From an uncultured virus (IMG/VR IMGVR_UViG_3300028833_000080) (taxonomy: Duplodnaviria; Heunggongvirae; Uroviricota; Caudoviricetes): a DNA stretch of 20,000 bases. Positions 5,195 to 20,000 of the stretch are shown here, in pieces; position 1 is the first letter of the stretch; each line of letters starts with the position of its first letter. The notes under the pieces were generated by a model. That model did not search any database, had not been told where the DNA came from, and saw nothing but the letters and a program-made list of their open reading frames with translations. A program made the translations under genes and the position numbers. The DNA lies in IMG/VR virus record IMGVR_UViG_3300028833_000080, one strand, 5' to 3'.

Positions 5195-6687
5195 TTAAGA
5201 AAAAAACATTAATTTACTAATATCTCTACTTTTTCTTTTCTTTCTCTTTTCTTCCTCTTGTTTAATATAATATAATCCATAAATAAAAGCTGAAAACTTA
5301 TCCTTTTTAATACTTCTTGTGCTTTGCTTAAGGATAATATTCATACCTTCATTACTTTCAACAAGATTAAGAATCTGTTCTCTTAAAATAGATGTTAATT
5401 GATATGGACGTAAATAATCATTTCTTTGGTCTGCATTAAAATTCTGTCCTTGTTTAGTACTCATAAGCTTAGTTTTAGCAGCCTGCTCATCTATTAAAAA
5501 TTTCACCTTTCCGCTTGCCATTTGTGTTTGAGCATAAGAATAAGCTTCTGTATTAATAGGAGCATTTGCTTTTATAAGATACATTGCATCTTCTTCTACC
5601 CCAATACCCTTGATTTTTTTATAAGGTGCAGTAGCCTCTTCTGATGTACCATCAGCGACACCAAAAGGAGGTAAATCTTCTCCGCTTTCTGGATCGACTT
5701 GTGCTTTAGTCATAAAATCAATAAGACCGACGCCTAAACCATTTGCATCAATAGCAAGCATTTTTGCATGATATTTATAGTATAGCTTTTTTAAATTAAT
5801 TGCTTGTATTTCAAAATCTTCTGCATCATAGGTATATATATTAACCATTGTTTTTAAATCAGCTCCTTGAGGTTGCGGGGTTGCCTTAAGAACAACAGCC
5901 TCTGTAGTACATCCCAATCTACCTACATCAACCCCTATTACATAGTAAGCTGATTTAGATGACCTTCCGCTGAATTCATATTCAGGTTGTAATAATACTC
6001 TATTTTTATCAAATTTTTCTGCTGAGAAAAAAGCACCTTCAACAGACCCCGTCCAAATTGAACGATATTCTCTATCAAATGATTCTTCATTAAATGTTCC
6101 TTGTAATCTAAGTTGATCAACAAAATCTTCAGATAACAATCCTTCAGTTACAGGGGTTTCATAAGTACCGCCCATAATCATAAAATTATCTGGATCAATA
6201 ATACTTTGAACAAGAGTCTCAATTAATTTATCATAAGCGAACGAATTTTTGAATCCCGCTGTAGTAATATATATTTGGCTCTTATTAACAACTTCCTCTA
6301 CATGACGAGTGCCATCGCTTAAATATCTATCTACGTTAGTAGTAGGAATTATAACTTCATTAAGAATATCTCCATCAATGAGAACACATTCCTCCATTAA
6401 ACCGCCAGTTCTACGCTGACCTCTAGAAGATTGTCTCGCTGCAAGGATATCAATAGAAGAGCCATTTTTAAATACATATTTAACATCATCTTTTGATTTC
6501 TTAGATACGCCTCTTGCCCAGTTAATTTCATTATTAAGTGCTGGAAGCAAAGTACAAATTTCCTCGATCTTTGCTATTGTAATACTAGCTGCTTGCTCCT
6601 TACCGCCTGTTGTAACAAATAAATGACTATTTGGATAAAGAATACATCTAAGCATAAGAGCCATCATACTTAAAAATGATTTACTAT
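5195..6687 (-). CDS. terL: Terminase large subunit, exon 2
   Basis: Frame extends upstream of the annotated ATG to ...SKSFLSMMAL. Contains Walker B-like GGLMEE, coupling motif ITTA, and RNase H-like nuclease motifs IGVDVG, AIDANG and KDKFSA. Confidence 0.9.
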
Positions 6688-7901
6688 CTTGATATTCTAT
6701 TAGATTCGCAAAATCTAATACGTTCTCTTATGAACTGCTATATGTTTCCATATAGAATAGACTATATCACACTCTAATTAAAGAGTCCTTCCATTTCGAT
6801 TTAAGGGATTCTCACCCACCGCATAAGCTTCGGTCCTACTCCTATTGCCTTTATTTATTTATCCTCGAAGGCTATTTCAGGATAGTCGTTGAAGTTTTAT
6901 TCTATATATTTAAAATGAAATCCACCATGACTTTTGTTTACTCCTCGGCATACCTTAGATATTGTACTACTATCTAAATTCAACTGTCGAGCTGCTTCAG
7001 CACATGAATCAAAATAAGCAATATGTTCATCAGTCAATGTTAATTGTTCTACTTTCTTACATGAAGAATTAGTTTTAGTATTATATAATGCAGCTTTAAC
7101 ATTTTCACTTAAAGTAATAAGTCTTAAATTTTCTAATCTATTATCAGTTTTATTTGCATTAATATGATCTATAACATAACCTTCAGGTATTTCATCAATT
7201 TGATGAAACAAACAATAAACCATTTTATGAACTACTATGTCTTTAGTGATTCCTTTATTGCTTAATCTAACTTTATAATAACCACAAGTTAAAGAGGGTT
7301 TTAATAATAATAAAGTTTCATCATTTCTAACCCTTCCTAAATTTGAAACAGAATAATTATATCCTTTAATAGATTTCCATTCTTCATTAGGTAAATCTTC
7401 TTTATAATATTCTTTTTTAGAAATAGGTTTAATTAATTTTTCTTGATGAGCATGGGTAGTATTTTCTGAATAACTTACCCATTCTAAATTAACTATATCA
7501 TTATTTAATTTGTCCCCATCTTTATGATTTACTACTGGTAGATTATTAGGGTTAGGAATGAAAGCTTCCGCCACCAATCTATGTGCATAAAACATTTTTT
7601 TAGTATTATTTTTTGATAATCTATAATATTTATATCCATGTTCTCCAATGGAACCTTTTAAAATTTTTCCTGTTAATGTATTTAATACATCTCCATTATC
7701 ATAAATAAGATAATTATCATAATCAGGTATCTGTTTTGTCATAGTGGATTCTCCTTTTTAATATATAAAATACTTACCTGCGGATTTCCTTGACGAAATA
7801 ATTTTTTCCTCAAGTATCTTCTAATATTATTTCATTTTAGGATTCCCGCAATTAAAAAGGTTTGTCCAAGTTTTTTATAAAACTTTTGGCGCAATTTATT
7901 C
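6688..7901 (-). mobile_element. Group I intron (subgroup IA-like), 1214 nt, with homing endonuclease gene in the P6 region
   Basis: The 5' exon ends in U (GCGU) and pairs with guide GCGC through a U.G wobble; the intron ends in G (6688). Core elements: P AATTGCGGGAA, Q AATCCGCAG, R TTCAACGACTA, S GATATAGTCT; P7 GACTA/TAGTC; P3 CCTTTT/GGAAGG; P9 CTATATG-GAAA-CATATAG. Splicing restores GCG TAT AGT AAA TCA (FPRAYSKSF). Confidence 0.93.
6897..7742 (-). CDS. Intron-encoded HNH homing endonuclease with two tandem NUMOD4-HNH units and a C-terminal NUMOD1/IENR1 domain (281 aa)
   Basis: HRLVAEAF..VNHKDGDKLNN..NLEW and HKMV..F..IDHINANKTDN..NLRL; EEWKSI..Y.VSNLGRVR (NUMOD4); FDSCAEAARQL...ISKVCRG (NUMOD1). 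Has its own SD AAGGAG. Confidence 0.92.
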   Translation of the reverse strand: MTKQIPDYDNYLIYDNGDVLNTLTGKILKGSIGEHGYKYYRLSKNNTKKMFYAHRLVAEAFIPNPNNLPVVNHKDGDKLNNDIVNLEWVSYSENTTHAHQEKLIKPISKKEYYKEDLPNEEWKSIKGYNYSVSNLGRVRNDETLLLLKPSLTCGYYKVRLSNKGITKDIVVHKMVYCLFHQIDEIPEGYVIDHINANKTDNRLENLRLITLSENVKAALYNTKTNSSCKKVEQLTLTDEHIAYFDSCAEAARQLNLDSSTISKVCRGVNKSHGGFHFKYIE

Positions 7902-8151
7902 ACGCTCGAGGGAAAGTTGCATAAACCACTTTATGTCGCATTACACATCTAAGAAAAATTCTTTGATAAAAATAGAAATTAAAAGTACTATCTGGCCCTT
8001 TCATAAAATCAACCAGGTAGTCAGGATACTCTCTATAAAAAGCTACAAGCTCTCTTAAATTATTTACTTGAGCTTTAAGTCTTTCTTCAGACATTCCTTG
8101 TTTAATTTCTTGGCGGGAACTAGATAAATCTAATAAATTTTGTAAACTCAT
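7902..8151 (-). CDS. terL: Terminase large subunit, exon 1
   Basis: FYFYQRIFLR (adenine-binding YQ motif) ...VYATFPRA ends at the start of Walker A. Joined with exon 2 it gives 1743 nt, or 580 aa. Confidence 0.9.
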
Positions 8152-9407
8152 TCTTCTTCATCTACTCCTCTCTGTTGCATTTCCAAATCTTTCTCTACAT
8201 CTTGCTGTAAAGCCTCTTGGAATGCATTATAATCTTCATCTTCTAATTCAACATAATCAAGACCTTGTTCTTTTGCTTTTTGGCGGTCTCGTTTCATTTC
8301 ATCAGCACTCTGTTTATTCTTTAAATATTGTTCAATTTCTTCTGCCAATGATTTATCTTCATAAATTAAAGATTTATTATATGCTTTAAGGTCATCTATT
8401 ATTTTATCAATAATATCATAAGGTACTTTTATTTCATATTTGGGAATAGCTCCACCAACTTTTTCACAATAGTCAACCATCTGTCCTATTGAATCAACAA
8501 AATCCGCTTTATCTTCTTTATTCTGAGCCTCTGTAAATTTTGCAGATTTCATCATTGCATCGTATACTCTAGATAATTTTTGATATGATTCAACATCTCC
8601 GCAATCAATTGCTTGATTCATCTTAAGACTAGTTTTGCATATCATTTTAAGAGTATCTTCACGAGCTGCTCCTTGAATATCAAAGCTATTCATAAAATCA
8701 TTATATTTTTGCTCTAATATAACCCATTCATCAGCTCTATATAATCTACCCCATTTTGTTGCAAGATAAATTTTATCTTCATCTGTTAAATCTGCACCAA
8801 CATCTGGGAGATCAACCTGCTCAAAATTTCCATTAACTGGATAAACAGATCCGTTCACCTGGCTTCCCGCATTTAAAAAGTCTTCCGCACTTGTAACTTC
8901 CGCACTTGGTTTAGGAGCATTGATTTCCGCATATGTTAAATATTGAGCTTCAGTAATCTCTCCATTTTCATATGCTTGTTTCATATCTTCTATTTTTTGT
9001 TGAATTTGCTCTTCTGGTGCACCATACATTTTAGCTTGTTGTGCAGCCATTTCCGCTAACCGCTCTGTATCATTCCAAGTATAATCTTTCCATTGTTTTA
9101 ATTTCATTTTAGAAAGATATTTACCAAAAACAGACATTCCATTCATTTTATAAGGATCTTTTTGATAAGCGCGATCCCGCAATGTATTCCATTCCGCTTC
9201 TATATAAGGAACGTCATACTTTTCTAATAACCATAAAAAGGTAGAGGGGTCAAAGTTATTGACATGCATGGTTTCACAAGCTTTACACAAGTCTGAACGA
9301 GTGCCATCTTTTTGAAGATAAAATTTATCTTCAACCATTGTTTTATTACATTTAGAACAATAATGTTGAGCTTTTGGAGCTGCCATTTTAATTGGTCCTG
9401 TTGGCAT
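8148..9407 (-). CDS. Zn-finger protein upstream of terL (419 aa); candidate terminase small subunit
   Basis: N-terminal CSKC...KDG...CKAC; the rest is helical; overlaps the terL start (ATGA). Function is from position only. Confidence 0.5.
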   Translation of the reverse strand: MPTGPIKMAAPKAQHYCSKCNKTMVEDKFYLQKDGTRSDLCKACETMHVNNFDPSTFLWLLEKYDVPYIEAEWNTLRDRAYQKDPYKMNGMSVFGKYLSKMKLKQWKDYTWNDTERLAEMAAQQAKMYGAPEEQIQQKIEDMKQAYENGEITEAQYLTYAEINAPKPSAEVTSAEDFLNAGSQVNGSVYPVNGNFEQVDLPDVGADLTDEDKIYLATKWGRLYRADEWVILEQKYNDFMNSFDIQGAAREDTLKMICKTSLKMNQAIDCGDVESYQKLSRVYDAMMKSAKFTEAQNKEDKADFVDSIGQMVDYCEKVGGAIPKYEIKVPYDIIDKIIDDLKAYNKSLIYEDKSLAEEIEQYLKNKQSADEMKRDRQKAKEQGLDYVELEDEDYNAFQEALQQDVEKDLEMQQRGVDEEE

Positions 9408-9409
9408 AA

Positions 9410-10531
9410 TTAACTCCTTCCTTTAGGTAATATTTTTCCTGTTTTATTATTTCTACAGTCTTTACAGATAGAATACCATCCATCTTTACTTGTATTATTT
9501 TTAGAAAAAAAGTAATTATGACCTAACTTAATTTGACCACATCTTGAACATTTTTTCCAATAACCTTGTTCTTCTTGGGTATAATGCCATATCAACCATT
9601 CCTTTGCGGCGGTTTCAGCAATCATTTTAGGTATTTTGTTACGCCATAAAGCACTAATATATTCAACTGAATGAAGAATGTTATAGTCTTTATCCAATAA
9701 CCGCTGTATTTCACTATTGGATTTACCATCTATTTTATAAATAATAAGATCGTAATAAAGCGGGAAGGCTTCTTTAAAAGTCTTATCAACAAGAGAATCA
9801 AGATCTTCCATCATCCAATGAATATCGCTGGTAAATTTATCCCAACATTCTTCTTTTATACGAGAATAATTACATAATAAAAGAGAAACATGTTCTGGAG
9901 TGAATAGATTAATAAAACCAGTACTTTTTACATTACCTTCTGCATCTAAATAAATTTTCTCTGTTAAGTCTAGAGTAGAGAAAGTTTTTTTTGCATTTAA
10001 TAATTTAATTGGTTTACAATATGCGGCTTTAAGTACATATTGATCTTTCCTCATTTCAATTAATTGTTTTTGAAGAAGAAAAGCTTTATGACCGCGGGCG
10101 CCGGCCTTGCGAGCTTCGACCTTGTCAATTTCTTCTACGAGCTCCCGCATTCCAGGGATATTTTGAATATCTTCTTCTGTTATTCCAATTTTTGGAGAAA
10201 AGATAATATTTTTATCATTAGCTATCATACTATAAATACCATCTTCCCCATTCTCTAATCTTTCAACTAAACCTTCAAATGATAATTCTCTATCTCTTCT
10301 AGTTTTTAATCTATTATCTGTTGTTATTACATGAGAAAGTCTTTCTTTTTTATCCATTCCTGAAAAAATAATATAATTAGCAAGTTTTTCTAAATAATAG
10401 GGAGTTAATTTTTCTGAAGGAGTGTTAGCAATTATTTCTTTTGTTTTTTCAACGCATGCGGCGGGATCTGATAAAGAGAAATCCATCTTTATGTATCCAG
10501 ACCCTACTTTCTGTTGATCATTATTTTCCAT
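9410..10531 (-). CDS. Hypothetical protein with sigma region-4-like HTH and C-terminal Zn finger (373 aa)
   Basis: LIIYKIDGKSNSEIQRLL..HSVEYISALW resembles an HTH; C-terminal CSRC...KDG...CKDC. First gene of the leftward operon. Confidence 0.5.
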   Translation of the reverse strand: MENNDQQKVGSGYIKMDFSLSDPAACVEKTKEIIANTPSEKLTPYYLEKLANYIIFSGMDKKERLSHVITTDNRLKTRRDRELSFEGLVERLENGEDGIYSMIANDKNIIFSPKIGITEEDIQNIPGMRELVEEIDKVEARKAGARGHKAFLLQKQLIEMRKDQYVLKAAYCKPIKLLNAKKTFSTLDLTEKIYLDAEGNVKSTGFINLFTPEHVSLLLCNYSRIKEECWDKFTSDIHWMMEDLDSLVDKTFKEAFPLYYDLIIYKIDGKSNSEIQRLLDKDYNILHSVEYISALWRNKIPKMIAETAAKEWLIWHYTQEEQGYWKKCSRCGQIKLGHNYFFSKNNTSKDGWYSICKDCRNNKTGKILPKGRS

Positions 10532-10672: not shown

Positions 10673-10799
10673 GGGAAGTGGGAAAGGGAGAAGGGGTATA
10701 TATTCCGTAAATTGAATTTGAAAAAATATTTGGAGGGGGTTTGGACGAGCAAAACCCAGTTTCAAAAATTTTTCTGGCAAAATCCCAAAATTATACCCC
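10673..10799. repeat. G-tract cluster and long imperfect palindrome at the strand switch
   Basis: GGG-AAGT-GGG-AAA-GGG-AGAA-GGGG (10673-10696). GGGGTATA (10693-10700) / TATACCCC (10792-10799) enclose TTTGAAA/TTTCAAA and GGGTTT/AAACCC, centred near 10746. Confidence 0.6.
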
Positions 10800-10841
10800 C
10801 GGTAGTTCCAGAAAAAGCTGGCGCTAAAAAATTTGGCTGCA

Positions 10842-10874
10842 CGGCCCATCCCCGGTCAAGATGGGCCGATTTTT
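10842..10874 (+). repeat. CG-rich hairpin, partial copy 0 of the composite element
   Basis: CGGCCCATC-9nt-GATGGGCCG followed by ATTTTT. Confidence 0.6.
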
Positions 10875-11001
10875 TAATAGAACAGAGGTTTAAGGAGTTT
10901 TTTACTTCGAATCAATAAGAAGTAAGAAAATTTAATTTTCACTTTTTTACTCTTTATCGACAAATATTAAAAAAATTTTTAAAATTTTTTTAAATAAGTA
11001 A

Positions 11002-11030
11002 TTGACTTTTTTCTACTATTATGCTATTAT
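11002..11030 (+). promoter_or_regulatory. SigmaA-type promoter (first rightward promoter)
   Basis: TTGACT-17-TATTAT with TG extension and an A/T-tract UP element, followed by AGAGAGAGAGGT. Confidence 0.75.
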
Positions 11031-11055
11031 AATTATAGAGAGAGAGGTAAGATAA

Positions 11056-11220
11056 ATGACAAAGTTTATTGTTAAAATTACAAATGATTTACTTGAAACT
11101 AGAATCTATACGACAGAAGCTACAACAAAAGAAAATGCTATTGCTAAGTGTTTAAGACTTTATAAATTTAATGGTTGTCCAGGAAAGGTTATGAAGACAG
11201 TTGTAATTGTTCTAAATTAA
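11056..11220 (+). CDS. Small hypothetical protein (54 aa, MTKFIVKITNDLLE...)
   Basis: Below the ORF-track cutoff. SD GAGAGGT with own promoter; open to TAA at 11220. Confidence 0.75.
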   Translation: MTKFIVKITNDLLETRIYTTEATTKENAIAKCLRLYKFNGCPGKVMKTVVIVLN

Positions 11221-11283
11221 AAGATTGACAATAACCTCAAGAAAATGATATAATAAAATCAAAGAGAAAGGTAGATAGAAATT

Positions 11284-11427
11284 ATGATTACAAAAATATT
11301 CGCTTATAAAGGTCAGGCTATGAATTATTATAAAAAGGTCTTAGCAAATAAAAATATTAATTTTTGTAATTGCGGTTTTGACTTCAAGCTTGGTAAGTAT
11401 ACAGTTTGCTACGACTATAAAAAATAA
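11284..11427 (+). CDS. Small basic hypothetical protein (47 aa, MITKIFAYKGQA...)
   Basis: Promoter TTGACA-18-TATAAT (11225-11254) and SD GAAAGGT. Confidence 0.7.
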   Translation: MITKIFAYKGQAMNYYKKVLANKNINFCNCGFDFKLGKYTVCYDYKK

Positions 11428-11452
11428 CTTTTTATCAAGAGGAGAATATAAA

Positions 11453-11545
11453 ATGACTATTTTGTGTTTTGAAACTTTTGTGTTTGTAATTATTATCTGG
11501 AAAGCTTGGGACAATCATAGAAAACCGCCTAAATACTGTGTATAA
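11453..11545 (+). CDS. Putative single-pass membrane peptide (30 aa, MTILCFETFVFVIIIWKAW...)
   Basis: SD GAGGAG; hydrophobic N-terminal half and basic tail. Confidence 0.5.
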   Translation: MTILCFETFVFVIIIWKAWDNHRKPPKYCV

Positions 11546-11561
11546 TTATACATTAATTGTG

Positions 11562-11696
11562 TGGCGCGCGCACTATCGCACTTGCGCCAAATTTTTAAAA
11601 CTTGGGCAGATTGCACAATTTGAGTATTGAATTTTTGTATATTTTGCTAGTTGTATTATTCCTAAAATAATGTTATTATAATTATAGGAAGAGAGG
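11562..11696 (+). repeat. Composite element copy 1 (short type, 16-bp dyad spacer)
   Basis: TGGCGCG/TGCGCCA hairpin, AATTTT, TGCACAA(11612)-16-TTGTATA, 9 bp, TTGTAT-17-TATTAT, AGAGAGGT. Confidence 0.8.
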
Positions 11697-11704
11697 TGCT
11701 AAAG

Positions 11705-12142
11705 ATGATGACAATTAAAGAAATCAATTTTGATATGGACGGAACAATCGCTAATCTCTATGGGGTTGAGAATTGGTTAGACTATTTAATGGCAAAGGAT
11801 ACAACACCTTACGCAATCGCAAGACCTTTGATTAACCTTTCAGCACTTGCAAGAGTTCTTAACAGACTTCAGAGAGAAGGTTATACAATCGGTGTTATCA
11901 GTTGGTTAGCAAAGAATTCTGATGATGATTATAACAAGAGAGTAGATGAAGTTAAGCGGGAATGGCTTGCTAGACATCTTCCTTCAGTTCAGTGGGATAA
12001 AATAAACATCGTGGCTTATGGAACACCTAAAAGCACTTGCGGTGAAGGGGTTTTATTCGATGACGAAGAACCAAATCGCAAAGAATGGAAAGGAATTGCA
12101 TACGATGTAGATAATATCTTTGAAGTTTTAAAGGCTCTGTAA
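11705..12142 (+). CDS. HAD-superfamily phosphatase, 5'(3')-deoxyribonucleotidase-like
   Basis: Motif I FDMDGT, motif II S (ISW), motif III K, motif IV LFDD. Start moved to ATG 11705 to fit the SD at 11690-11696. Confidence 0.8.
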   Translation: MMTIKEINFDMDGTIANLYGVENWLDYLMAKDTTPYAIARPLINLSALARVLNRLQREGYTIGVISWLAKNSDDDYNKRVDEVKREWLARHLPSVQWDKINIVAYGTPKSTCGEGVLFDDEEPNRKEWKGIAYDVDNIFEVLKAL

Positions 12143-12157
12143 ATCAGAGCCTTTTTT
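12130..12157 (+). terminator. Intrinsic terminator
   Basis: AAAGGCTCTG-TAAAT-CAGAGCCTTT plus T tract. Confidence 0.85.
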
Positions 12158-12167
12158 AATGCGGGCG

Positions 12168-12332
12168 CGGCGCCTGCGGTAGGATGGCGCCGAATTTTTA
12201 TTATACTACACTGTTCGAGGTTTTGTCAATAGTAAAATTAACCAAGGATAACCACTTTCCGCTCCTAAAATTTGTGCATAATTACCTATTGCATTCTAGA
12301 TGGGGGTATGCTATTATAATATCAGAGAGAGG
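12168..12332. repeat. Composite element copy 2 (long type, with leftward promoter)
   Basis: CGGCGCC/GGCGCCG hairpin; minus-strand TTGACA-18-TATAAT (12229..12200); TAACCAA-26-TTGTGCA (12239-12278); TTGCAT-17-TATTAT; AGAGAGAGG. Confidence 0.85.
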
Positions 12333-12729
12333 GAATGAGAAAAAATTCCTAGGTTTTTCGGAGATAGCCTCCTTCCTAACGCGTTCTGATTAGTCAGAAC
12401 TAGAAGTATAATGGATAGGGAAAAATCCATCGGCTCTTCTCTTTACTAAGGAATAAGGACCGAGCCTACAGGGCGGGCGGGGTGTAAGAGTCATTGAAAC
12501 CTCCTGCGAAACTAACTGAGATGCCCATGAAATTCGGTGGTGCCTTCCGCAAGGCAGTTTCTCCTAAAAGATATTGCGGGGTCAGTCAACAGCTCACCAA
12601 ACGAGCCAAAATACCAGTTGAGCTAGCGAGCAAGGTCGGGCAAGGTGCTTGAGTGCTGTGCCCATGAACAGCCAAGAAAGAGAGTAAACCAATATGACGA
12701 AACAGGCGTTTAAATAACGCCTGTTTTTT
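12324..12729 (+). ncRNA. Putative ~400-nt structured non-coding RNA, family not recognised
   Basis: Bounded by a promoter and a terminator, no credible ORF, GC-richer than flanks. Hairpins include GTTCTGA/TCAGAAC, ATGGAT/ATCCAT, GGCTC/GAGCC, TGCCTT/AAGGCA and two GGGCR/TGCCC stems. Confidence 0.7.
12700..12729 (+). terminator. Intrinsic terminator
   Basis: AAACAGGCGTT-TAAAT-AACGCCTGTTT plus T tract. Confidence 0.88.
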
Positions 12730-12899
12730 GGCGCCGCGAGTGCGTTCGCACGAGCGTCGAATTTTCATTATACCATAGCATTACACATTTTGTCAATAGC
12801 ATTTTTGCACAAAGATCTAGGTAAAAACATCCTGAAATTTGTGCAACATTTTACTTGACACTATAAAAATTTTTTAGTATTATAATTATAGAGAGAGGG
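12729..12899. repeat. Composite element copy 3 (long type)
   Basis: TGGCGC/GCGTCG hairpin with inner GTGCG-TT-CGCAC; minus TTGACA-18-TATAAT (12796..12767); TGCACAA-26-TTGTGCA (12806-12845); TTGACA-17-TATTAT; AGAGAGAGG. Confidence 0.88.
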
Positions 12900-12963
12900 A
12901 GATACGGTATTAGCCTTCTACAGACCAAAGGCATCTCCTAAACATCAATCGGAGGTATTTATC

Positions 12964-13146
12964 ATGACACATAGACAGTTTATTAAAGCCAATTTTGAAG
13001 TTCTCGCTGAAACTGAAAACGCAATTCTTTTCATTGCTTATGGCGAGATGTGTTGTGAAATCAATGGACAGTCATTTGATTGCCATTCTGTTGATGAGTT
13101 CAATGAAATGGTTGAATTCTTTGGAGACGATACTTTCGAGGAGTAA
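12964..13146 (+). CDS. Small acidic hypothetical protein (60 aa)
   Basis: SD GGAGGT; ORF track. Confidence 0.8.
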   Translation: MTHRQFIKANFEVLAETENAILFIAYGEMCCEINGQSFDCHSVDEFNEMVEFFGDDTFEE

Positions 13147-13199
13147 AAAATTTAAAAAAGATATTGACATAATCCTAGGGTTATGATAATATAATTATA

Positions 13200-13350
13200 G
13201 AGATGAGGTAAGGCAACCCGAGAGAAAGGGAAAAGCGCATAGTTGCCAAGTAAGTCCAAACCGACAAAGACATCTCGCCGCATGGTCGCTCCGTTGTGCG
13301 GAATATAAATGTGAACCAAGTGGACAACCTTGCAAGTCCAACTAGGCGGA
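13200..13350 (+). ncRNA. Structured 5' leader or sRNA
   Basis: Follows promoter TTGACA-17-TAATAT (13164-13192). Stems GAGATG/CATCTC, GGCAAC/GTTGCC, CCGCAT/GTGCGG and TGGAC/GTCCA lie about 185 nt ahead of the next ATG. Confidence 0.5.
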
Positions 13351-13384
13351 GTGAATAGGTAATAACAAAAGAGAGGTAATTAAC

Positions 13385-13570
13385 ATGGTTGAAAAAATTT
13401 ATTACATTGAAAATTCTTATGATTTAAGTATGGCTCTTGGTGAAATTGAAGAGAAATTTCCTTGTTTTGTGGATAGAGAGTATATTGAAATGGATTGCTC
13501 CAAAGTCACCATTAAAGCAAGGCAGGAAGATATGGCAAGTATTGAAAATATCTTAGCACCTTGTATGTAA
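13385..13570 (+). CDS. Small acidic hypothetical protein (61 aa)
   Basis: SD AGAGAGGT; followed by terminator AGGCGGGAA/TTCCCGCCT. Confidence 0.8.
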   Translation: MVEKIYYIENSYDLSMALGEIEEKFPCFVDREYIEMDCSKVTIKARQEDMASIENILAPCM

Positions 13571-13571
13571 G

Positions 13572-13770
13572 AAAAAGGCGGGAACCACTTCCCGCCTCTC
13601 TTTTTGCCTCGGCGACGCGCGATGGGCCGGCGCGCGTCGAAATTTTATTATATCATCTCGCTGTAGATTTTGTCAATAGGCAAATGCAACAAAAAACTAG
13701 GTAAGGGGATCCCGCAAATTTGTGCAATTTTACTACTTGCAAACCGCTTTAAAATATGTTATATTATAAT
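13572..13770. repeat. Terminator plus composite element copy 4 (long type)
   Basis: CGACGCGCG-9-CGCGCGTCG (13613-13639); minus TTGACA-18-TATAAT (13676..13647); GCAACAA-27-TTGTGCA (13686-13726); -35 TTGCAA at 13737. Confidence 0.88.
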
Positions 13771-13922
13771 TACAGAAAGGAAAGACGTGGTGGATACCTT
13801 TCAAAGAGATAATTGGCAATTCTTATTGAAAGTAAGGTTTTGCAAAGCCAAGGTTGCAAGATTTGAAAAATCAATAACTACCCAATGGAAGCCACAGGAT
13901 TAAAACAAGAGAGGTAGATAAA

Positions 13923-14123
13923 ATGATTAAACTTAAAATTATGTGCGTACTTTGTGGAAATTTCCACTCTGTAATGGTTAAAAAAGAAGACTATGTTAAA
14001 TATTTAGAAGGCGAGCTTGTTCAAAAAGCGTTCCCTTATTTAAATGCAACTCAAAGAGAGCAGATTATTTCTGGACTTTGCCCGAAATGCCAAGAAGATA
14101 TGTTTGGAAGTGAGAAAGAATAA
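13923..14123 (+). CDS. Small Zn-ribbon protein (66 aa)
   Basis: CVLC ... CPKC; SD AGAGAGGT. Confidence 0.8.
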   Translation: MIKLKIMCVLCGNFHSVMVKKEDYVKYLEGELVQKAFPYLNATQREQIISGLCPKCQEDMFGSEKE

Positions 14124-14252
14124 ATGTATAGACTAGTTTTTCAAGATGGATACAAAAGTCATTGGACAGATAATTTCAATTTGATTTTGGAAGGTGCAAA
14201 CCTTTTTAATGCAAAAATTGAAAAAAGAGTTGACACACAAGAAAATTTATGA
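14124..14252 (+). CDS. Small hypothetical protein (42 aa, MYRLVFQDGYKSHW...)
   Basis: ATG directly after the previous TAA. The 3' end contains the next promoter's -35 box (TTGACA-17-TATAAT, 14230-14258). Confidence 0.6.
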   Translation: MYRLVFQDGYKSHWTDNFNLILEGANLFNAKIEKRVDTQENL

Positions 14253-14289
14253 TATAATAATTATAACAAAAGAAAGAGAGGTAGTTCAA

Positions 14290-14487
14290 ATGGTAAAACT
14301 CACTTATGACGTTATGGTTAATGGTAGAGCAATCGCTAACAATGTTCCTACTTATGCAGAAGCTGAGCGAATTAAGGGCGAAAGCGTTGGTGCTACTTTA
14401 GTAAGGCGGTATGTGCCTGTCGAAAATGAATATACCTTATGCCCAAGGACTCCTAAGAAAAATGCTATGAGAGTTCAGGCAAGATAA
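14290..14487 (+). CDS. Small hypothetical protein (65 aa, MVKLTYDV...)
   Basis: Start reassigned to ATG 14290 behind SD GAGAGGT and the promoter at 14230. Confidence 0.8.
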   Translation: MVKLTYDVMVNGRAIANNVPTYAEAERIKGESVGATLVRRYVPVENEYTLCPRTPKKNAMRVQAR

Positions 14488-14500
14488 ATAAAGAATCTAA

Positions 14501-14701
14501 AGGTGCGGAAGAAATTCCGCACCTCTCTTTTTGGCGCGCCGTGCGGGATCCGCCCTGGCGCGTTTTTTCGATATACCATCCCCTTGCAGATTTTTATACT
14601 AGCAAATTGCACAATTAGACTAGATACCGGCGCCCGCATTTTTGTGCAATTTGTCTATTGTTTTATTTATTTTCTTATGATATTATAATTACAAGAGAGG
14701 T
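14501..14701. repeat. Terminator plus composite element copy 5 (long type, leftward promoter decayed)
   Basis: Terminator AGGTGCGGAA/TTCCGCACCT; hairpin GGCGCGCC/GGCGCGTT; TGCACAA-27-TTGTGCA (14608-14648); TTGTTT-17-TATTAT; AGAGAGGT. Confidence 0.85.
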
Positions 14702-14709
14702 AATGAATT

Positions 14710-14880
14710 ATGATGAACATGAACGTAGAACAATGGGTAGGAAATTTTAAAGGTCATAGAACTGTAAAAATTATTTATGCTAATACCAATAAAGAAGCAA
14801 ATCTCTTTTGGTTGGGTTTCAGATATAATATAGTAGTTAAAGTTAAAGTAAGCGGCGATTGTGCTTATTTATGGGTATAA
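14710..14880 (+). CDS. Small hypothetical protein (56 aa, MMNMNVEQWVGNFKGH...)
   Basis: SD AGAGAGGT; open to TAA at 14880; not in the ORF track. Confidence 0.7.
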   Translation: MMNMNVEQWVGNFKGHRTVKIIYANTNKEANLFWLGFRYNIVVKVKVSGDCAYLWV

Positions 14881-14893
14881 GGAGAGGTATAAA

Positions 14894-15106
14894 ATGAAAT
14901 ATAAATTTGAATGGAATGACATCAGAGCAGTGGTTACTTTAATCAATGTAATCTTGATTATGAAGTATGGACTTACAGTTGCATGGGTTGGAATGGTAAT
15001 TGCGGGAATCGGTATTATAAAAGATATTGCAGTAGATAGAAAAATTAACGGTTTTGTTATGCATAGTGCTAATATTATGCTCAATTTATTCTTTTTAATA
15101 CAATAG
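14894..15106 (+). CDS. Small membrane protein (70 aa)
   Basis: SD GGAGAGGT before ATG 14894; two to three hydrophobic segments. Confidence 0.78.
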   Translation: MKYKFEWNDIRAVVTLINVILIMKYGLTVAWVGMVIAGIGIIKDIAVDRKINGFVMHSANIMLNLFFLIQ

Positions 15107-15125
15107 ATAAAGAATATAGCGGGAG

Positions 15126-15291
15126 GCCCCTAAAATAGGGGGCTTTTTTAATTGCGCGGCGCGCTTAGGGCTCGCCCTGCGCCGCATTTTTGCTAGTAGT
15201 CATATTTACCAAAATTTGCTATGAATTTTTATACATTTTGTCTATTGTAATTATTCCCATAATTTGATAATATAAATATAGAAAGAGAGGT
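15126..15291 (+). repeat. Terminator plus composite element copy 6 (short type)
   Basis: Terminator GCCCC/GGGGC plus T tract; hairpin GCGGCGCG/TGCGCCGC; TTACCAA-16-TTATACA (15206-15235); TTGTAA-17-TAATAT; AGAGAGGT. Confidence 0.8.
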
Positions 15292-15299
15292 GCTTTAAT

Positions 15300-15563
15300 A
15301 TGACATTAATGACAACTGATGAGATTTTAGAAAAAGCAAAAGAAAAACTTTTAAAAGAATATGAGGAAACTATTAAATATTCAATCCGTACTGAAATACA
15401 TGAAATAAAGCAAACTATTCCATTATCAGAGAAAGTTCAAGAAAGCATCACTAGAGGTTGGGCTATTGTAATGTTTGCGCAAGACCTTGGGGTAAAATAT
15501 AGTGACATAATAGATTGTTATATTGTATTTAAGGCGGCTATGGAAAAGTTATTGACAAATTAA
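15300..15563 (+). CDS. Hypothetical protein (87 aa)
   Basis: SD AGAGAGGT; 3' end overlaps promoter TTGACA-17-TATAAT (15552-15580). Confidence 0.8.
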   Translation: MTLMTTDEILEKAKEKLLKEYEETIKYSIRTEIHEIKQTIPLSEKVQESITRGWAIVMFAQDLGVKYSDIIDCYIVFKAAMEKLLTN

Positions 15564-15606
15564 AAATAATTTGTTATAATATTTTTAGAAAGAGAGGTTT
15601 TCTAAA

Positions 15607-15765
15607 ATGTATGATAGACGCAAAGATATGACTAAAAAGGCATGGAAAGAGCAACAGAAGAAAAACCGCATCTTAAATGGTTTTAACACAGGTACAAGGG
15701 ATATGAAGTCAGCAAAATATCCTAGCAGACAAGAGCAGAAAAGAGAGGTAAGAAATTATGAGTAA
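15607..15765 (+). CDS. Small basic hypothetical protein (52 aa, MYDRRKDMTKKAWK...)
   Basis: SD AGAGAGGT, own promoter, overlaps the next gene start. Confidence 0.72.
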   Translation: MYDRRKDMTKKAWKEQQKKNRILNGFNTGTRDMKSAKYPSRQEQKREVRNYE

Positions 15766-15973
15766 GAATGAAGAAAATGTATTAAGAGCAAATATTCTTG
15801 GCGGAATGAATTCTTATATTCTTGAAGTGATTGGGGATGATGATATTACAGACCGCTGGCTAATGTTTGGAATCCCCGATGGATGTGATGAAGAAGAATT
15901 AATGGAAATCGCAGAAGATGAAAGTGAATTCTTAAGAATTAGTAATTTATGGAATAATTTAATTAGAGAATAA
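15758..15973 (+). CDS. Small acidic hypothetical protein (71 aa)
   Basis: SD AGAGAGGT; ORF track. Confidence 0.8.
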   Translation: MSKNEENVLRANILGGMNSYILEVIGDDDITDRWLMFGIPDGCDEEELMEIAEDESEFLRISNLWNNLIRE

Positions 15974-15990
15974 AGGAGGATTTTAAAAAT

Positions 15991-16239
15991 ATGATTGTAG
16001 ATATTGAATATAGTATTGTAGGTAACTATAGACATCGTGTAGATTTAGATGATTATGCAGATGAAATTTTTGATACATATGGAATGACATGGGAAGAATT
16101 ATCTGATGATGAGCGAGATGAATTTATTAAAGATTTAGGATATCTTAAGTTTGGTGCAGCAGAATCAGAATGTGAATATACCTTAGGGAGTGTACAAGCT
16201 TGGGAAGAAGAAAATGGAACAGAACATTGGTTTAAATAG
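15991..16239 (+). CDS. Small acidic hypothetical protein (82 aa)
   Basis: SD AAGGAGG; ORF track. Confidence 0.8.
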   Translation: MIVDIEYSIVGNYRHRVDLDDYADEIFDTYGMTWEELSDDERDEFIKDLGYLKFGAAESECEYTLGSVQAWEEENGTEHWFK

Positions 16240-16266
16240 AGGATAAGAATAGAAGAGGTGTGAAAA

Positions 16267-16542
16267 ATGAAATATTATAAAATTACTTGTTCAAATGGAT
16301 TCTGCGGTTGCGATGAAGATTTTTATGTTCAAGCAGAAGAGAATGAAATTGATGACTTAGCCAATGATATTTTTCAAAATGATTATAGCTTCTATGAACC
16401 CGATGGTAGATTTATTTATGGAAAAAGTTGGGGTGATGATATAACAGATGATGAAGTAGAAGAGTATCAAGAAAACTGTGAATTCTACTATACAGAAATT
16501 TCTGAAGAAGAATATAATGAACATGAATCAGAGTGGGGATAA
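16267..16542 (+). CDS. Very acidic, aromatic-rich hypothetical protein (91 aa)
   Basis: SD GAGGTG; about 28 D/E versus 4 K/R. Confidence 0.8.
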   Translation: MKYYKITCSNGFCGCDEDFYVQAEENEIDDLANDIFQNDYSFYEPDGRFIYGKSWGDDITDDEVEEYQENCEFYYTEISEEEYNEHESEWG

Positions 16543-16697
16543 AATAACACCCACTCTTTTGCGGCGCGACCTTGGTCAAGCTGCGCCGCAATTTTTATAG
16601 ATAGATATATTTACCAAATTTTGAAACGAAATTTTGTGCATTTTGTATATTGCTTTTGTTCCTATAATGTAGTATTATAGTTACATGAAAGAGAGGT
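16530..16697 (+). repeat. Terminator plus composite element copy 7 (short type)
   Basis: Terminator AGAGTGGG/CCCACTCT; hairpin TTGCGGCGCG/TGCGCCGCAA; TTACCAA-16-TTGTGCA (16611-16640); TTGCTT-17-TATTAT; AGAGAGGT. Confidence 0.85.
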
Positions 16698-16705
16698 ACA
16701 AAAAA

Positions 16706-16996
16706 ATGACAAAAAAATGGGTTAAAACAGTAGAAAAGAATGGACGTACATTTAGACTTATTTTTGAGCGCGATTACTTAGATTGTCTTTGGTGTTATGG
16801 GTATGAAATATATAGACCCAAAAAGCATTTTCTTGATTTTTCTTATCAAAGCCAAATATTTTGTTTTTGGACAAGTAATGAAGATACTATAATAGAACAG
16901 GCTATTGAAGAAATCAATAATATTTTTATTGATGAAGAAACAGTAAAAAGAGCTGAAAAAGCACTTGACAAATTTGCTGATTATACTGTATCATAA
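16706..16996 (+). CDS. Hypothetical protein (96 aa, MTKKWVKTVE...)
   Basis: Start reassigned to ATG 16706 behind the SD. The 3' end contains TTGACA (16965) of the next promoter. Confidence 0.8.
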   Translation: MTKKWVKTVEKNGRTFRLIFERDYLDCLWCYGYEIYRPKKHFLDFSYQSQIFCFWTSNEDTIIEQAIEEINNIFIDEETVKRAEKALDKFADYTVS

Positions 16997-17025
16997 TTAT
17001 ATAAAAAGCGAGGAAGGAACAACAA

Positions 17026-17310
17026 ATGAAACTACTAATTGATATACCCGACATTACTTACAAAAGAACGCTTGAAATTGGAGCACTTCAAATATGCAAA
17101 GATGAAGATATTTACCGTTGGATAGCCAAGGGTACTCCCATTCCCGACAATATTACTAATGGTGAATTTATAACAATGTTTATACCACATGAAAGTATTA
17201 CTGTTTGCAAAGAAAAACAGTTTGTAATAGTTATTGGCAAAGACTATCTTTTTCAACATCATTATCCGTTGGATTGGTGGAACGCAAAGTACAAGGGGGC
17301 GAGTAAATGA
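17026..17310 (+). CDS. Hypothetical protein (94 aa)
   Basis: SD GAGGAAGGA; ORF track; coupled to the next gene by ATGA-type overlap. Confidence 0.78.
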   Translation: MKLLIDIPDITYKRTLEIGALQICKDEDIYRWIAKGTPIPDNITNGEFITMFIPHESITVCKEKQFVIVIGKDYLFQHHYPLDWWNAKYKGASK

Positions 17311-17582
17311 AAGTTGTAATTGAGTTACCTGAAAATTGGGAAGAATCTAAAAGTAAACTTAGAGCACTTGTAGATGCTTTTCAAGATGCTAAACCCTATG
17401 AAGATTTTGATTTTATCTTAGATAAAATAACAAAAGAAATAAAAGAACAGTATGGTGACTGTGACTTATGCGAGTATTATGAAGATTATGATTTTGAAGA
17501 AAATGATATTTCTTCTTATAATTACGTAGCAAGTATAACAGATATTTTAGATATTATTAATGCATATAAAGATGGTCGATAG
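17307..17582 (+). CDS. Acidic hypothetical protein (91 aa) with CDLC
   Basis: ORF track; followed by terminator ATGGTCGATAG/CTATCGACCAT (17572-17599). Confidence 0.78.
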   Translation: MKVVIELPENWEESKSKLRALVDAFQDAKPYEDFDFILDKITKEIKEQYGDCDLCEYYEDYDFEENDISSYNYVASITDILDIINAYKDGR

Positions 17583-17649
17583 GAAAATCTATCGACCATT
17601 TGTTCTTCCACCGGTTGAAAAATTCTAAAATTTTTGATATAATATAATT

Positions 17650-17910
17650 GTAATGAAAAAGAAATAAAAATTTTTCTCATTGTAAAATTTATTTAAGTGT
17701 TTTAAATAAATCTAATCTGATTTTATTTAAAAACTATCTAAAAATTCTTAATATTCTAGTTGAAATGATAGCCGGTATCTATCATTTCTGTCCGAGTTTC
17801 TAGACCAAGGACTCGTTGAAGTAGTTTAATAAGGATTTTTTAAATAGCTAGATTTAATAATTTTTCCCCATAATTGAGCGCGCCTTTTGCGAACGTAAAA
17901 GGCGCGAATT
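17650..17910 (+). ncRNA. Putative AT-rich structured ncRNA (~260 nt)
   Basis: Promoter TTGAAA-17-TATAAT (17615-17643), with no SD or ORF downstream. Stems ATTTATTTAA/TTAAATAAAT, GAAATGATAG/CTATCATTTC, CGAGT/ACTCG and AAATCTA/TAGATTT. Confidence 0.55.
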
Positions 17911-18019
17911 TCCATTATATCATACCTCAGCAGATCTTGTCAATAGGAATTTTGCACAAAAAATTTTTATTTTTAATCCTAAAATTTGACTTGACTTTTA
18001 TAAAAAATTATATTATAAT
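17879..18019. repeat. Composite element copy 8 (long type, right half-site truncated)
   Basis: CGCGCCTTTTGC/GTAAAAGGCGCG; minus TTGACA-18-TATAAT (17943..17914); TGCACAA(17953)-26-TTG; TTGACT-17-TATAAT (17991-18019). Confidence 0.82.
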
Positions 18020-18116
18020 AAATACATAAGATAAAGGAAACACGTAAACGCTTAGAGCGAGAGTCTTTACCTTGCCAAGGGCAGAGTGGTTAACAAATAA
18101 AAAATAAAAAAAGTTG

Positions 18117-18312
18117 TTGACATTTCCAAAATCTTATGATATAATCTTTATATAAGATAACAAGTGGTTAATCGTAATCGTGCGGGTAGTGGTGTGAACA
18201 GAAACCCAGTGCACGGGGTGCAGAAACAGAAACGTAGCGAGGCAGATATACGGAAAAAAGTTGCAAATTTTTTCAAAAACCGCTTGACATCTTATAAAAG
18301 ATATGATATAAT
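18117..18312 (+). promoter_or_regulatory. Two further tandem consensus promoters
   Basis: TTGACA-17-TATAAT with TG extension at 18117-18145 and 18284-18312, each followed by AAGATAA. Confidence 0.85.
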
Positions 18313-18368
18313 AAATATATCAAAGATAACAAATAACAATTTTATTCAAAGAAAGGTGGTATTACATT

Positions 18369-18719
18369 ATGACAGATAAGAAGATGACAAAGAAGGACAT
18401 GTTTGCACTTATTAAGGAAAGAGTGGCAGATAACGAGGACATGGTTGCTTTTATCGACCACGAGATTGAGTTACTCAATAAGAAGGCTAATGGCTCAAGA
18501 AAGCCTACCGCAAAGCAGATTGAGAACGAAGCACTTAAGAATGATGTTCTTGCAGTTCTTTCCGCAGAAGGTAAGACAGTTTCACAGATTATCGCATCTG
18601 ATGAAAAGTTTGCAGGTATGTCCAATCAGAAGATGACCGCACTCTTAAAGATGCTTGTTGCTGATGGTTCAGCCGAGAAGGTAGTTGACAAAAAGACTTC
18701 TTTCTTCAAGTTGGCTTAG
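18369..18719 (+). CDS. Probable winged-helix DNA-binding protein (116 aa)
   Basis: C-terminal half has a helix-TVSQII-helix(SNQKMTALLKMLVADG)-beta-hairpin pattern; SD GAAAGGTGG; high-expression codon bias. Confidence 0.65.
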   Translation: MTDKKMTKKDMFALIKERVADNEDMVAFIDHEIELLNKKANGSRKPTAKQIENEALKNDVLAVLSAEGKTVSQIIASDEKFAGMSNQKMTALLKMLVADGSAEKVVDKKTSFFKLA

Positions 18720-18788
18720 TCCCTCTTTTGCTCTAGGGGTAAGGGTAATGAAACTTGCCCCTAATGATTCTTGTACGAGGTAGAAAAA

Positions 18789-19118
18789 ATGGATAAAGAA
18801 AAGTTAATCAAGTCAATTATGGCGGATTGTAAAGCCCAAGGTGAACCCGTCACAAGAGAAGAAGCAGAAGAAATGGCGGAAATGGAACTTAAATCGCATC
18901 AAATAAAGAAATACGAACAAGAATCCGTTACCAAGGTGCGAAAAGTCAAAGACCGCAAAGTAGATGAAGAAAAAAAGAATTTACTTTCTTGTATTAAAGT
19001 TTTAATGGAAGGACTAGGGGCAGAAAAACTTACCCTTAAAACTGAAACAGAATTGTCTTTCCACTACAATAATAATACATATACCATTAAATTAACTAAA
19101 CACAGACCACCTAAATAA
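18789..19118 (+). CDS. Hypothetical protein (109 aa, MDKEKLIKSIM...)
   Basis: SD GAGGT before ATG 18789. Confidence 0.78.
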   Translation: MDKEKLIKSIMADCKAQGEPVTREEAEEMAEMELKSHQIKKYEQESVTKVRKVKDRKVDEEKKNLLSCIKVLMEGLGAEKLTLKTETELSFHYNNNTYTIKLTKHRPPK

Positions 19119-19130
19119 GGCGGTTTTTGT

Positions 19131-19202
19131 GGGCATGTCGCCTAAAGGTATGGCACCAAACTTTTAATTTGGTAAATGAGAGTTCGATTCTCTTCATGCC
19201 CA
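19131..19202 (+). tRNA. tRNA-Lys (anticodon UUU), CCA not encoded
   Basis: Acceptor GGGCATG/CATGCCC plus A; D arm GCC/GGC; anticodon stem CCAAA/TTTGG with loop CT-TTT-AA; T arm GAGAG-TTCGATT-CTCTT. Confidence 0.85.
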
Positions 19203-19217
19203 TTGAAAAGGATTTTT

Positions 19218-19390
19218 AAAGCATGGTTTCCGCCATGCTTTTCTTTTTTGACGTCGCGCTTACAACCCAAGCGCGACGTAATTTTTGTCAAGATGGCAAG
19301 TTGCACAATTTTTATTTCCAATTTTTGTGCATTTTCATCTCTTGTTTTTTCCTAAAAATTTTATTATAATTATTTTATAGAAAGAGAGGT
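19218..19390 (+). repeat. Terminator plus composite element copy 9 (short type)
   Basis: Terminator AAAGCATGG/CCATGCTTT; hairpin ACGTCGCGCTT/AAGCGCGACGT; relic TGTCAA; TGCACAA-16-TTGTGCA (19302-19331); TTGTTT-17-TATAAT; AGAGAGGT. Confidence 0.88.
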
Positions 19391-19396
19391 TGTATT

Positions 19397-19906
19397 ATGT
19401 GCGAATTAAAAGGTATGACAGAATTAAATCTTGCGGTAACTAAGGTTCTTGCCCCTTTTGGTATTTCAAAGGCTTTATTAAGTGATACCTATGAATATCG
19501 TTATGTTGATGAAAGTGTGCTATTTAAATTAACTGAAGAAATTGAGGATGATTTTTTCAATGAGTTTATTGCAGAACGTTTTAATTATAAATGCAAATAT
19601 CCTTTTATTATTAGTCTTTTGCATGAAGTAGGACATCACAAGGCTAATGATGAAATTGAGGGTGCTATCTATGAATTTTGTATCAGAGAAAAAGCCCGTA
19701 TTTGCGAGGAAATGGAAACCGCAGACGAGAAAAGAGCCAAGGAATTAGAATGGCAATATTTTAATTTACCTGATGAAATAATGGCTACCCAATGGGCTGT
19801 AAATTACGCAATCAGACACCCAAAGAAAATTGAAAAAATGTGGGAAAGAACCTTGATTGCTTTGAAACAATTTTACGAAATAAATGAAATAATTAATGAG
19901 GATTAA
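19397..19906 (+). CDS. Putative zincin metallopeptidase (HExxH; ImmA/IrrE-like pattern), 169 aa
   Basis: SLLHEVGH followed by a downstream E..A..WA helix (PDEIMATQWA). Confidence 0.65.
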   Translation: MCELKGMTELNLAVTKVLAPFGISKALLSDTYEYRYVDESVLFKLTEEIEDDFFNEFIAERFNYKCKYPFIISLLHEVGHHKANDEIEGAIYEFCIREKARICEEMETADEKRAKELEWQYFNLPDEIMATQWAVNYAIRHPKKIEKMWERTLIALKQFYEINEIINED

Positions 19907-19911
19907 ATAAC

Positions 19912-20000
19912 AGGTGGCGGGAAACCGCCACCTCTCTTATACTTTATTAAATAACACTTGATATGTTTTGCGGGCGGCACACGTGCCAAACAGCCCGCAT
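19912..20000 (+). repeat. Terminator plus start of composite element copy 10
   Basis: Terminator AGGTGGCGG-GAAA-CCGCCACCT; hairpin TGCGGGC/GCCCGCA with inner GGCAC/GTGCC, cut by the window edge. Confidence 0.7.

Follow-up and report, generated by a model that had tools for sequence, protein, structure and literature searches.

Predicted backward promoters as an optional module of a repeated palindrome element with a 70-bp spacing in the early region of an uncultured phage

The closest described counterparts of the element reported here are the PeSL (promoter early stem-loop) units of T4-type phages. In the accessible text of PMC2839356 and PMC4122927, these units repeat between variable early ORFans, combine a host-consensus promoter with a stem-loop, and serve as the homology for cassette exchange; the present element likewise repeats a host-consensus promoter and a stem-loop in a variable early region. 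A second counterpart is provided by REP (repetitive extragenic palindromic) sequences and BIMEs (bacterial interspersed mosaic elements). REPs are described in the available part of PMC3333891 as 20–40-nt GC palindromes that bind gyrase and integration host factor (IHF), and their loops are preferred by gyrase according to the corresponding part of PMC6379681. The element lies in a 20,000-nt stretch of DNA (the window) from an uncultured virus of the Caudoviricetes (IMG/VR record IMGVR_UViG_3300028833_000080). From ~11 kb on, the window carries small rightward open reading frames (ORFs) behind strong promoters, which constitute an early region. An original prediction for this DNA described mirror-image leftward promoters that fire into a GC hairpin. 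Its account of the promoter geometry holds, whereas the invariant core, consisting of the palindrome, the 70-bp distance and the word TCCYRWAA, had been missed. Judged by sequence, the backward promoters are an optional module of a larger repeated element and not its constant part.

The element is ~105 bp long and recurs roughly every kb along the early region, in a single orientation. Its core is a GC palindrome of 27 bp or 37–38 bp, the two peaks of palindrome span, with co-varying arms, and the word TCCYRWAA at 70 ± 1 bp, counted from the palindrome's near edge. The element statistics were computed on the loci of relatives and not on the window alone. In a blind scan, genome collections were matched to a pattern of near arm and word only, which allowed 31 gap lengths and ignored the promoter and the far arm. 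The gap was 69–71 bp in 37 of 49 matches. A complementary far arm was found in 36 of these 37 matches vs none of the 12 at other gaps, with a span of 27 bp in 27 cases and 36–38 bp in six. The backward promoter was present in just 14 of the 37. An earlier count, in which many loci had been found via half-site patterns, placed 163 of 210 TCCYDNAA matches 69–71 bp from the palindrome edge (656 GC-palindrome sides). Among elements chosen by word and promoter, blind to the hairpin, 100/117 had a stem of at least 6 vs 22% of chimeras, which shows that arm pairing is under selection. T-tracts at ~+3 and ~+30 are kept in all element classes.

Two complete relatives contain 12 and 15 copies in a single orientation, in one ~12-kb block adjoining the packaging genes; three more rows in the other orientation, with distances of 66–67, were set aside. 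In the window, the palindrome and the word are 68–71 bp apart in copies 1–4 and 6–9. The copies are given below with their TGCACAA/TTGTGCA half-sites.

10842..10868, no strand: copy 0, an extra 27-bp GC palindrome without TCCYRWAA at +70.
11563..11667, plus strand: copy 1, short class; palindrome 11563–11588, word at 11660, half-sites 11612–11618 and 11635–11641 (16 apart), no backward promoter.
12168..12192, no strand: copy 2, GC palindrome; word at 12263, 70 bp off; half-sites 12239–12245 and 12272–12278.
12732..12759, no strand: copy 3, imperfect GC palindrome; word at 12830, 70 bp off; half-sites 12806–12812 and 12839–12845.
13613..13639, no strand: copy 4, 27-bp GC palindrome; word at 13710, 70 bp off; half-sites 13686–13692 and 13720–13726.
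14535..14648, plus strand: copy 5; palindrome 14535–14562, decayed backward promoter at ~14570–14598, decayed word at 14632 (distance 69), intact half-sites 14608–14614 and 14642–14648.
15156..15262, plus strand: copy 6, short class; palindrome 15156–15185, word at 15255 (69 bp).
16561..16667, plus strand: copy 7, short class; palindrome 16561–16589, word at 16660 (70 bp).
17879..17906, no strand: copy 8, GC palindrome; word at 17977, 70 bp off; left half-site 17953–17959, right half-site absent.
19251..19357, plus strand: copy 9, short class; palindrome 19251–19279, lone backward TTGACA, word at 19350 (70 bp).
19970..19998, no strand: copy 10, palindrome, with the remainder beyond the window.

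Four copies carry the perfect minus-strand TTGACA-18-TATAAT (12/12) that had been predicted at 12229, 12796, 13676 and 17943.

12200..12229, minus strand: copy 2 backward sigmaA-type promoter, 12/12, 18-bp spacer, predicted start ~12193.
12767..12796, minus strand: copy 3 backward promoter, 12/12 with TG, predicted start ~12760.
13647..13676, minus strand: copy 4 backward promoter, 12/12 with TG.
17914..17943, minus strand: copy 8 backward promoter, 12/12 with TG, predicted start ~17907.

Chance accounts for a mean of 0.006 such promoters and a maximum of 1 (500 dinucleotide resamples of 11000–20000) vs the four observed. A TG extension is present in three of the four and absent at 12229. Each backward -35 box sits 9 bp from the left half-site, which is degenerate in copies 2 and 4, and transcription is predicted to begin where the GC palindrome has its foot. 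The backward promoter of copy 5 is decayed (-35 3/6, -10 4/6), and copy 9 retains TTGACA alone, at 10 bp from the half-site instead of 9. No credible minus-strand gene follows these promoters. A script-based scan of 400 nt downstream returned frames of 26–34 aa at most, antisense to other features, and no frame at all for copies 2 and 8. The original prediction was borne out on the promoters, their distance to the half-site and the lack of a minus-strand gene.

The view of the backward promoters as selected promoters also stands. In a set of 80 loci, retrieved as carrying homologues of the sigma-like protein encoded near the packaging genes, 69 of 674 strong promoters face a GC palindrome. Of these, 63 are perfect, compared with 200/371 gene-facing promoters, and 58 aim backwards. 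As to the RNA-polymerase decoy that the original prediction raised as a possibility, forward promoters are equally perfect and outnumber the backward ones in most loci. The backward promoters appear on this comparison to be real, selected and family-wide.

The promoter is optional and can stand on either side. Among 183 non-redundant elements, 82 contain the backward promoter and 31 a promoter that fires into the palindrome in the forward direction; 12 have both and 82 have neither, and the palindrome lacks a backward promoter in 101. In a subgroup comprising 12/36 loci, the 6.5–9 kb examined contain 1–5 elements, and none of the backward promoters there is perfect. Where a promoter is present, the -35 offset, spacer length and start offset compensate for one another and hold the distance at ~70 bp. 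The word lies 33–34 nt upstream of the -35 box in 91/181 palindrome-facing promoters vs 3/768 gene-facing promoters.

The TGCACAA/TTGTGCA half-sites are spaced by 15–17, 25–27 or 35–37 bp in 240/274 pairs. This spacing in whole helical turns points to a protein bound to duplex DNA, and the mirror symmetry noticed in the original prediction would arise because one dyad serves promoters on both sides. The exact dyad occurs 16 times in five Oscillospirales genomes vs 1 control. Host dyad spacers measure 15–16 or 26–27 in five of six cases in one genome and are scattered in another, and several host dyads are located 9 or 19–20 bp upstream of a -35 box. A half-site is found 7–9 bp ahead of the first repeat in 6/16 type I-C CRISPR leaders vs 0.08 in shuffles. 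The half-sites are also present at host promoters and in CRISPR leaders, which makes a host protein their probable reader, and the dyad suggests a putative IHF- or Fis-like architectural factor in Oscillospirales. The dyad showed no strand skew of the type seen for FtsK-orienting polar sequences (KOPS) or SRS along host replichores in two genomes (18/24 and 8/10 forward/reverse, interspersed). Dyads or half-sites beside type I-C first repeats and upstream of host promoters were observed at loci L351, L360, L364, L370, L372 and L379 and at L382, L388, L390 and L394. Arrays of back-to-back half-site dyads without promoters lie near the packaging block at L039, L015 and L007.

A dyad at promoters could also be a repressor operator between divergent promoters, comparable to SPBRE, the site of MrpR in SPbeta. 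The phage is SPbeta-related, the repeated dyad overlaps the regions upstream of the promoters, and a repeated 15-bp element located at promoters is the target of MrpR in the portion of PMC10516654 that was available. Nevertheless, the PF00589 profile matched 0/5 records, although a divergent MrpR-like fold could escape that profile, and the same dyad is found at host-genome promoters and next to the first CRISPR repeat. An operator would moreover leave the palindrome and the 70-bp rule unexplained. This explanation is very improbable.

The mirror geometry additionally recalls Frpo, a single-strand promoter, in which case the mirror arm would pair with the rightward promoter in single-stranded DNA. 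Such pairing is the Frpo design in the accessible text of PMC11541004, and half-sites and -35 boxes do pair in the predicted DNA folds of copies 3 and 4. However, the arm spacers match no better than shuffled partners (3.18 vs 3.26 ± 0.16, n = 68), the -10 boxes are not paired with each other in four window folds, and the loop length is quantised by helical turns. Arm pairing was rejected on the evidence of the spacers and -10 boxes, and an Frpo-like promoter is scarcely credible here.

The palindrome itself might act as a REP/BIME-like gyrase loading site and topological insulator for a densely transcribed region, with a host bending protein alongside. Besides the affinity of gyrase for REPs cited above, a gyrase A gene is present in 26/29 related records and in 21/21 of those that are near-complete. 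Gyrase is family-wide, however, and its co-occurrence is therefore uninformative. The spacing is counted from the near edge and not from the palindrome centre in both the 27- and 38-bp forms, and the word lies >80 bp from that centre. No GTAG foot is present in the listed flanks, and a Y1 transposase was found in 0/22 records. A gyrase site is improbable.

The surroundings of the elements bear on a further alternative, a transcription boundary. At a PeSL-like junction of this kind, terminator, palindrome and head-on polymerase would together block read-through between swappable early cassettes, and the word would be a regulator site for the backward promoter. In line with this, the elements are positioned between cassettes and often behind a terminator (45/77 of those with and 50/95 of those without the backward promoter), the palindrome-facing promoters aim mostly backwards (58/69), cassettes are swapped near elements among relatives, and PeSL stem-loops act as terminators in the accessible part of PMC2839356. 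Yet the backward promoter is no commoner where the terminator is missing, and 31/183 elements have a promoter that fires forwards into the palindrome; these two results weigh against the original proposal that convergent transcription insulates the cassettes. The 70-bp rule is also kept where the backward promoter is absent, and a boundary would not need that rule. A boundary function seems unlikely, if still worth entertaining.

The intact copies had further been described as those followed on the right by structured or non-coding RNA. Non-coding DNA does follow them in the window (4/4 vs 0/5). The association is weak in relatives, in which a ribosome-binding site (RBS) and start codon come immediately after the element in 23/53 copies with the backward promoter vs 37/58 others (p = 0.037). 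Structure was not borne out for the two long right-hand non-coding stretches, which gave folding z values of -1.33 and -0.61.

Pieces identical to the window are present in a sheep-gut RNA library (one sample, one study). Among the matches listed for RNA run X1, contigs with zero differences to the window cover 12389–12759 and 17635–17901, and they end close to the backward starts predicted at 12760 and 17907, at distances of 1 and 6 nt, respectively. These contigs reveal neither strand nor true ends, and the library may contain DNA; uncovered parts and the small-share run X2 were given no weight. The contig ends are a weak hint of backward RNA, and the end at 12759 fits equally a forward RNA that the hairpin stops or stabilises.

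The original prediction envisaged short antisense RNAs made of the hairpin and an upstream terminator. As a general explanation, short RNAs with a 5' hairpin would act in trans or antisense, as a decoy or sponge. The start at the hairpin foot and the two contig ends are consistent with such RNAs, and a looser count of first inner mismatches on the promoter's strand gave 45 G-T vs 25 A-C. By contrast, the strict wobble count (15 vs 13) shows no bias to the backward strand, and the folding energies of the two hairpin strands are equal; the class without the backward promoter leaned to the gene strand (26 vs 13, p = 0.053). Backward terminators are not enriched, following 16/77 copies with the backward promoter vs 24/95 without it. 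The upstream terminator of copy 4 (13576–13597) carries a T-run on both strands, and the minus-strand terminator-like site nearest to the copy 8 promoter is 17599–17572. There was no Rfam match of note, and the same hairpin exists without the promoter in more than half of the elements (101/183). Small RNAs as the purpose of the element are quite unlikely, and the original antisense proposal has weak support at most.

Two non-coding stretches stand out in RNA cover. The stretch at 12325–12730 (~400 nt) after copy 2 is covered in both RNA runs and has no Rfam match. The stretch at 18025–18296 after copy 8 has the deepest cover in X1 (contig depth 155); it also has no Rfam match and is no more structured than shuffles.

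The word TCCYRWAA recurs at one conserved site outside the repeated elements.

10702..10804, plus strand: conserved site 'U', present in single copy, after the packaging block and ahead of the first early cassette; word 10783–10790, followed by a C-run.

This ~100-bp site is rich in A-tracts and is present once in 54/57 records with a match and once per complete genome. It ends with TCCYRWAA in 48/53 matches, including 20/25 of those not used as seeds, in the same orientation as in the elements. The site is a candidate terminus, pac site or late control site because of its position and the biology of lambda, SPP1 and T7. The ends of 32 listed contigs are scattered. A link of the element to packaging is doubtful. 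As a separate observation, the upstream part of the site recurs ~37 bp away in L028, L031 and L036.

The geometry, the co-variation of the arms, the selection on the promoter and its optional, two-sided placement are established by sequence comparison, and the presence of a real promoter within the 70-bp site is nearly certain. The explanation that we tentatively prefer, at somewhat less than an even chance, is that the element acts in cis as a DNA site where the palindrome is opened by RNA polymerase. The phased half-sites would be occupied by a host protein that binds or bends DNA, and a phage protein would read TCCYRWAA, the word common to the element and the single-copy site. The promoter, from either side, would load RNA polymerase exactly at the palindrome edge. 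Opening or brief transcription would then allow the palindrome either to fold or to be acted upon at a defined distance, and any RNA would be a by-product. The purpose may be DNA processing (terminus/packaging-type cutting, or recombination) more than gene regulation, which is the weakest step. In its most specific form, a transcription-activated DNA-processing signal, the protein that reads TCCYRWAA at the single-copy site and at a dozen oriented early copies would act 70 bp away on the polymerase-opened palindrome; this form is possible and on balance unlikely. If it is true, the phage would gain a ladder of sites programmed for cutting, nicking or priming.

Several observations weigh against the polymerase-opened site. 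The single-copy site has no palindrome at 70 bp, and an 8-letter word in common with the element need not imply a common protein. Elements with neither promoter (82/183) would need read-through or do without local polymerase loading. The positions of the X1 contig ends also fit a function of the RNA. Searches for a tyrosine recombinase (0/5 records), Cas1 (0/5) and the Y1 transposase profile PF01797 (0/22) identified no binding protein or enzyme. When close relatives are aligned, the alignment ends fall within elements about twofold more often than expected (32/248 vs 15.8, not independent). They are spread, mostly in the forward promoter, and so do not indicate site-specific exchange.

The head/packaging block of a large phage makes up the left half of the window, with genes for a portal protein, a terminase large subunit with HNH genes and a YonG-like protein at 8148–9407. 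This half also encodes, at 9410–10531, the sigma-like protein, which is filed as 'sigma factor' in PHROG 5767. The portal matches include the Enterococcus phages EF1/VRE9 and SPbeta-like phages, and the source appears to be an SPbeta-related gut phage family. The element is spread across a family of 120–200-kb gut phages. Pattern matches in the genome collections came from contigs titled Clostridia in 80 of the 98 listed, with several titles from other phyla, and may represent binned phage contigs. Eubacteriales are given as the likely host of a more distant relative in the accessible part of PMC10607447. Neither the element nor the single-copy site was found in 22 kb of the isolated Enterococcus relative VRE9_2 or in 27.5 kb of Phass-1. 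On host chromosomes, 6/201 genomes gave one element match each, and the listed matches lacked the phage layout by eye; the full element appears to be a phage and not a host feature. No description of the 70-bp element was found in the literature, which was covered as text free of figures and supplements and with few subscription papers.

Other features were observed in the same genomes. The terminase large subunit region (5195–8151) is seemingly split by an HNH endonuclease gene (6897–7742), possibly within an intron. A tRNA-Lys(ttt) gene lies at 19130–19203, inside the early region; it alone exceeded its threshold in the Rfam scan, and no CRISPR repeat was among the Rfam matches. Relative G003 encodes a DUF2828/vWA protein (L340:4481-5947) and an RNA ligase (L339:7320-8567), which might, as a speculation, be partners of abundant non-coding RNAs. 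An O/DnaD-like initiator gene with internal tandem repeats (L341:12798-13409) is located just past the last element of the array, and in both complete genomes that last element bears a distinct CATATG-containing spacer. An interpretation of the elements as replication-origin iterons was rejected, as the O/DnaD-like initiator of G003 has different repeats within its gene.

Compared with REP/BIME sequences as described in the accessible parts of PMC3333891 and PMC6379681, and drawing also on PMC13284261, the element is likewise an intergenic GC palindrome (27–38 bp) at the ends of transcription units, near a probable bending-protein site in a gyrase-encoding genome. It differs in having no visible GTAG foot and no Y1 transposase, in being single and not paired, and in possessing its own promoter and a distal word. 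Frpo/ssi sequences, in the available text of PMC11541004, share mirror-image -35/-10 arms amid small early genes, whereas the present arms do not pair beyond the shared motifs and follow the geometry of duplex DNA. The CRISPR leader-repeat junction, in the part of bioRxiv 10.1101/2023.05.26.542337 that was available, similarly combines a palindrome with phased motifs and bending sites, each a fixed distance away. The TTGTGCA half-site is common to the phage elements and Oscillospirales type I-C leaders. However, the listed phage elements lack the leader inverted repeat, the 3' handle of the repeat and spacers, and Cas1 is absent from the five records. TCCYRWAA was found in 0/16 type I-C leaders, and a leader pattern matched 0/5 genomes. 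A CRISPR-leader mimic or solitary (Racr-like) repeat was consequently rejected, with the half-site alone shared with the 16 host I-C leaders.

In lambda cos, a binding word and a symmetric site are a measured distance apart and have a bending protein between them, and in the T7 packaging signal transcription runs into a palindrome near the genome end. Those sites are single-copy, unlike the 12–15 copies plus one distinct single-copy site observed here, for which processing is only putative. In the PeSL units, as far as the accessible text describes them, promoters face genes and the stem-loop position varies, whereas in the present element perfect promoters face the palindrome, and the 70-bp geometry of palindrome, T-tracts and word is fixed. 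A promoter that faces an RBS and a gene, as in PeSLs, is represented here by the forward promoter only, since no gene follows the backward promoters. What was a vague 'antisense promoter' has become a precise, testable site with a 70-bp ruler, turn-quantised palindromes, a probable host architectural motif and a word shared with a candidate genome-end site. If a phage protein acts at the element, it would constitute a new way of marking DNA via the host polymerase. Among known systems, the element is a variant of the phage promoter-hairpin cassettes with a rigid core.

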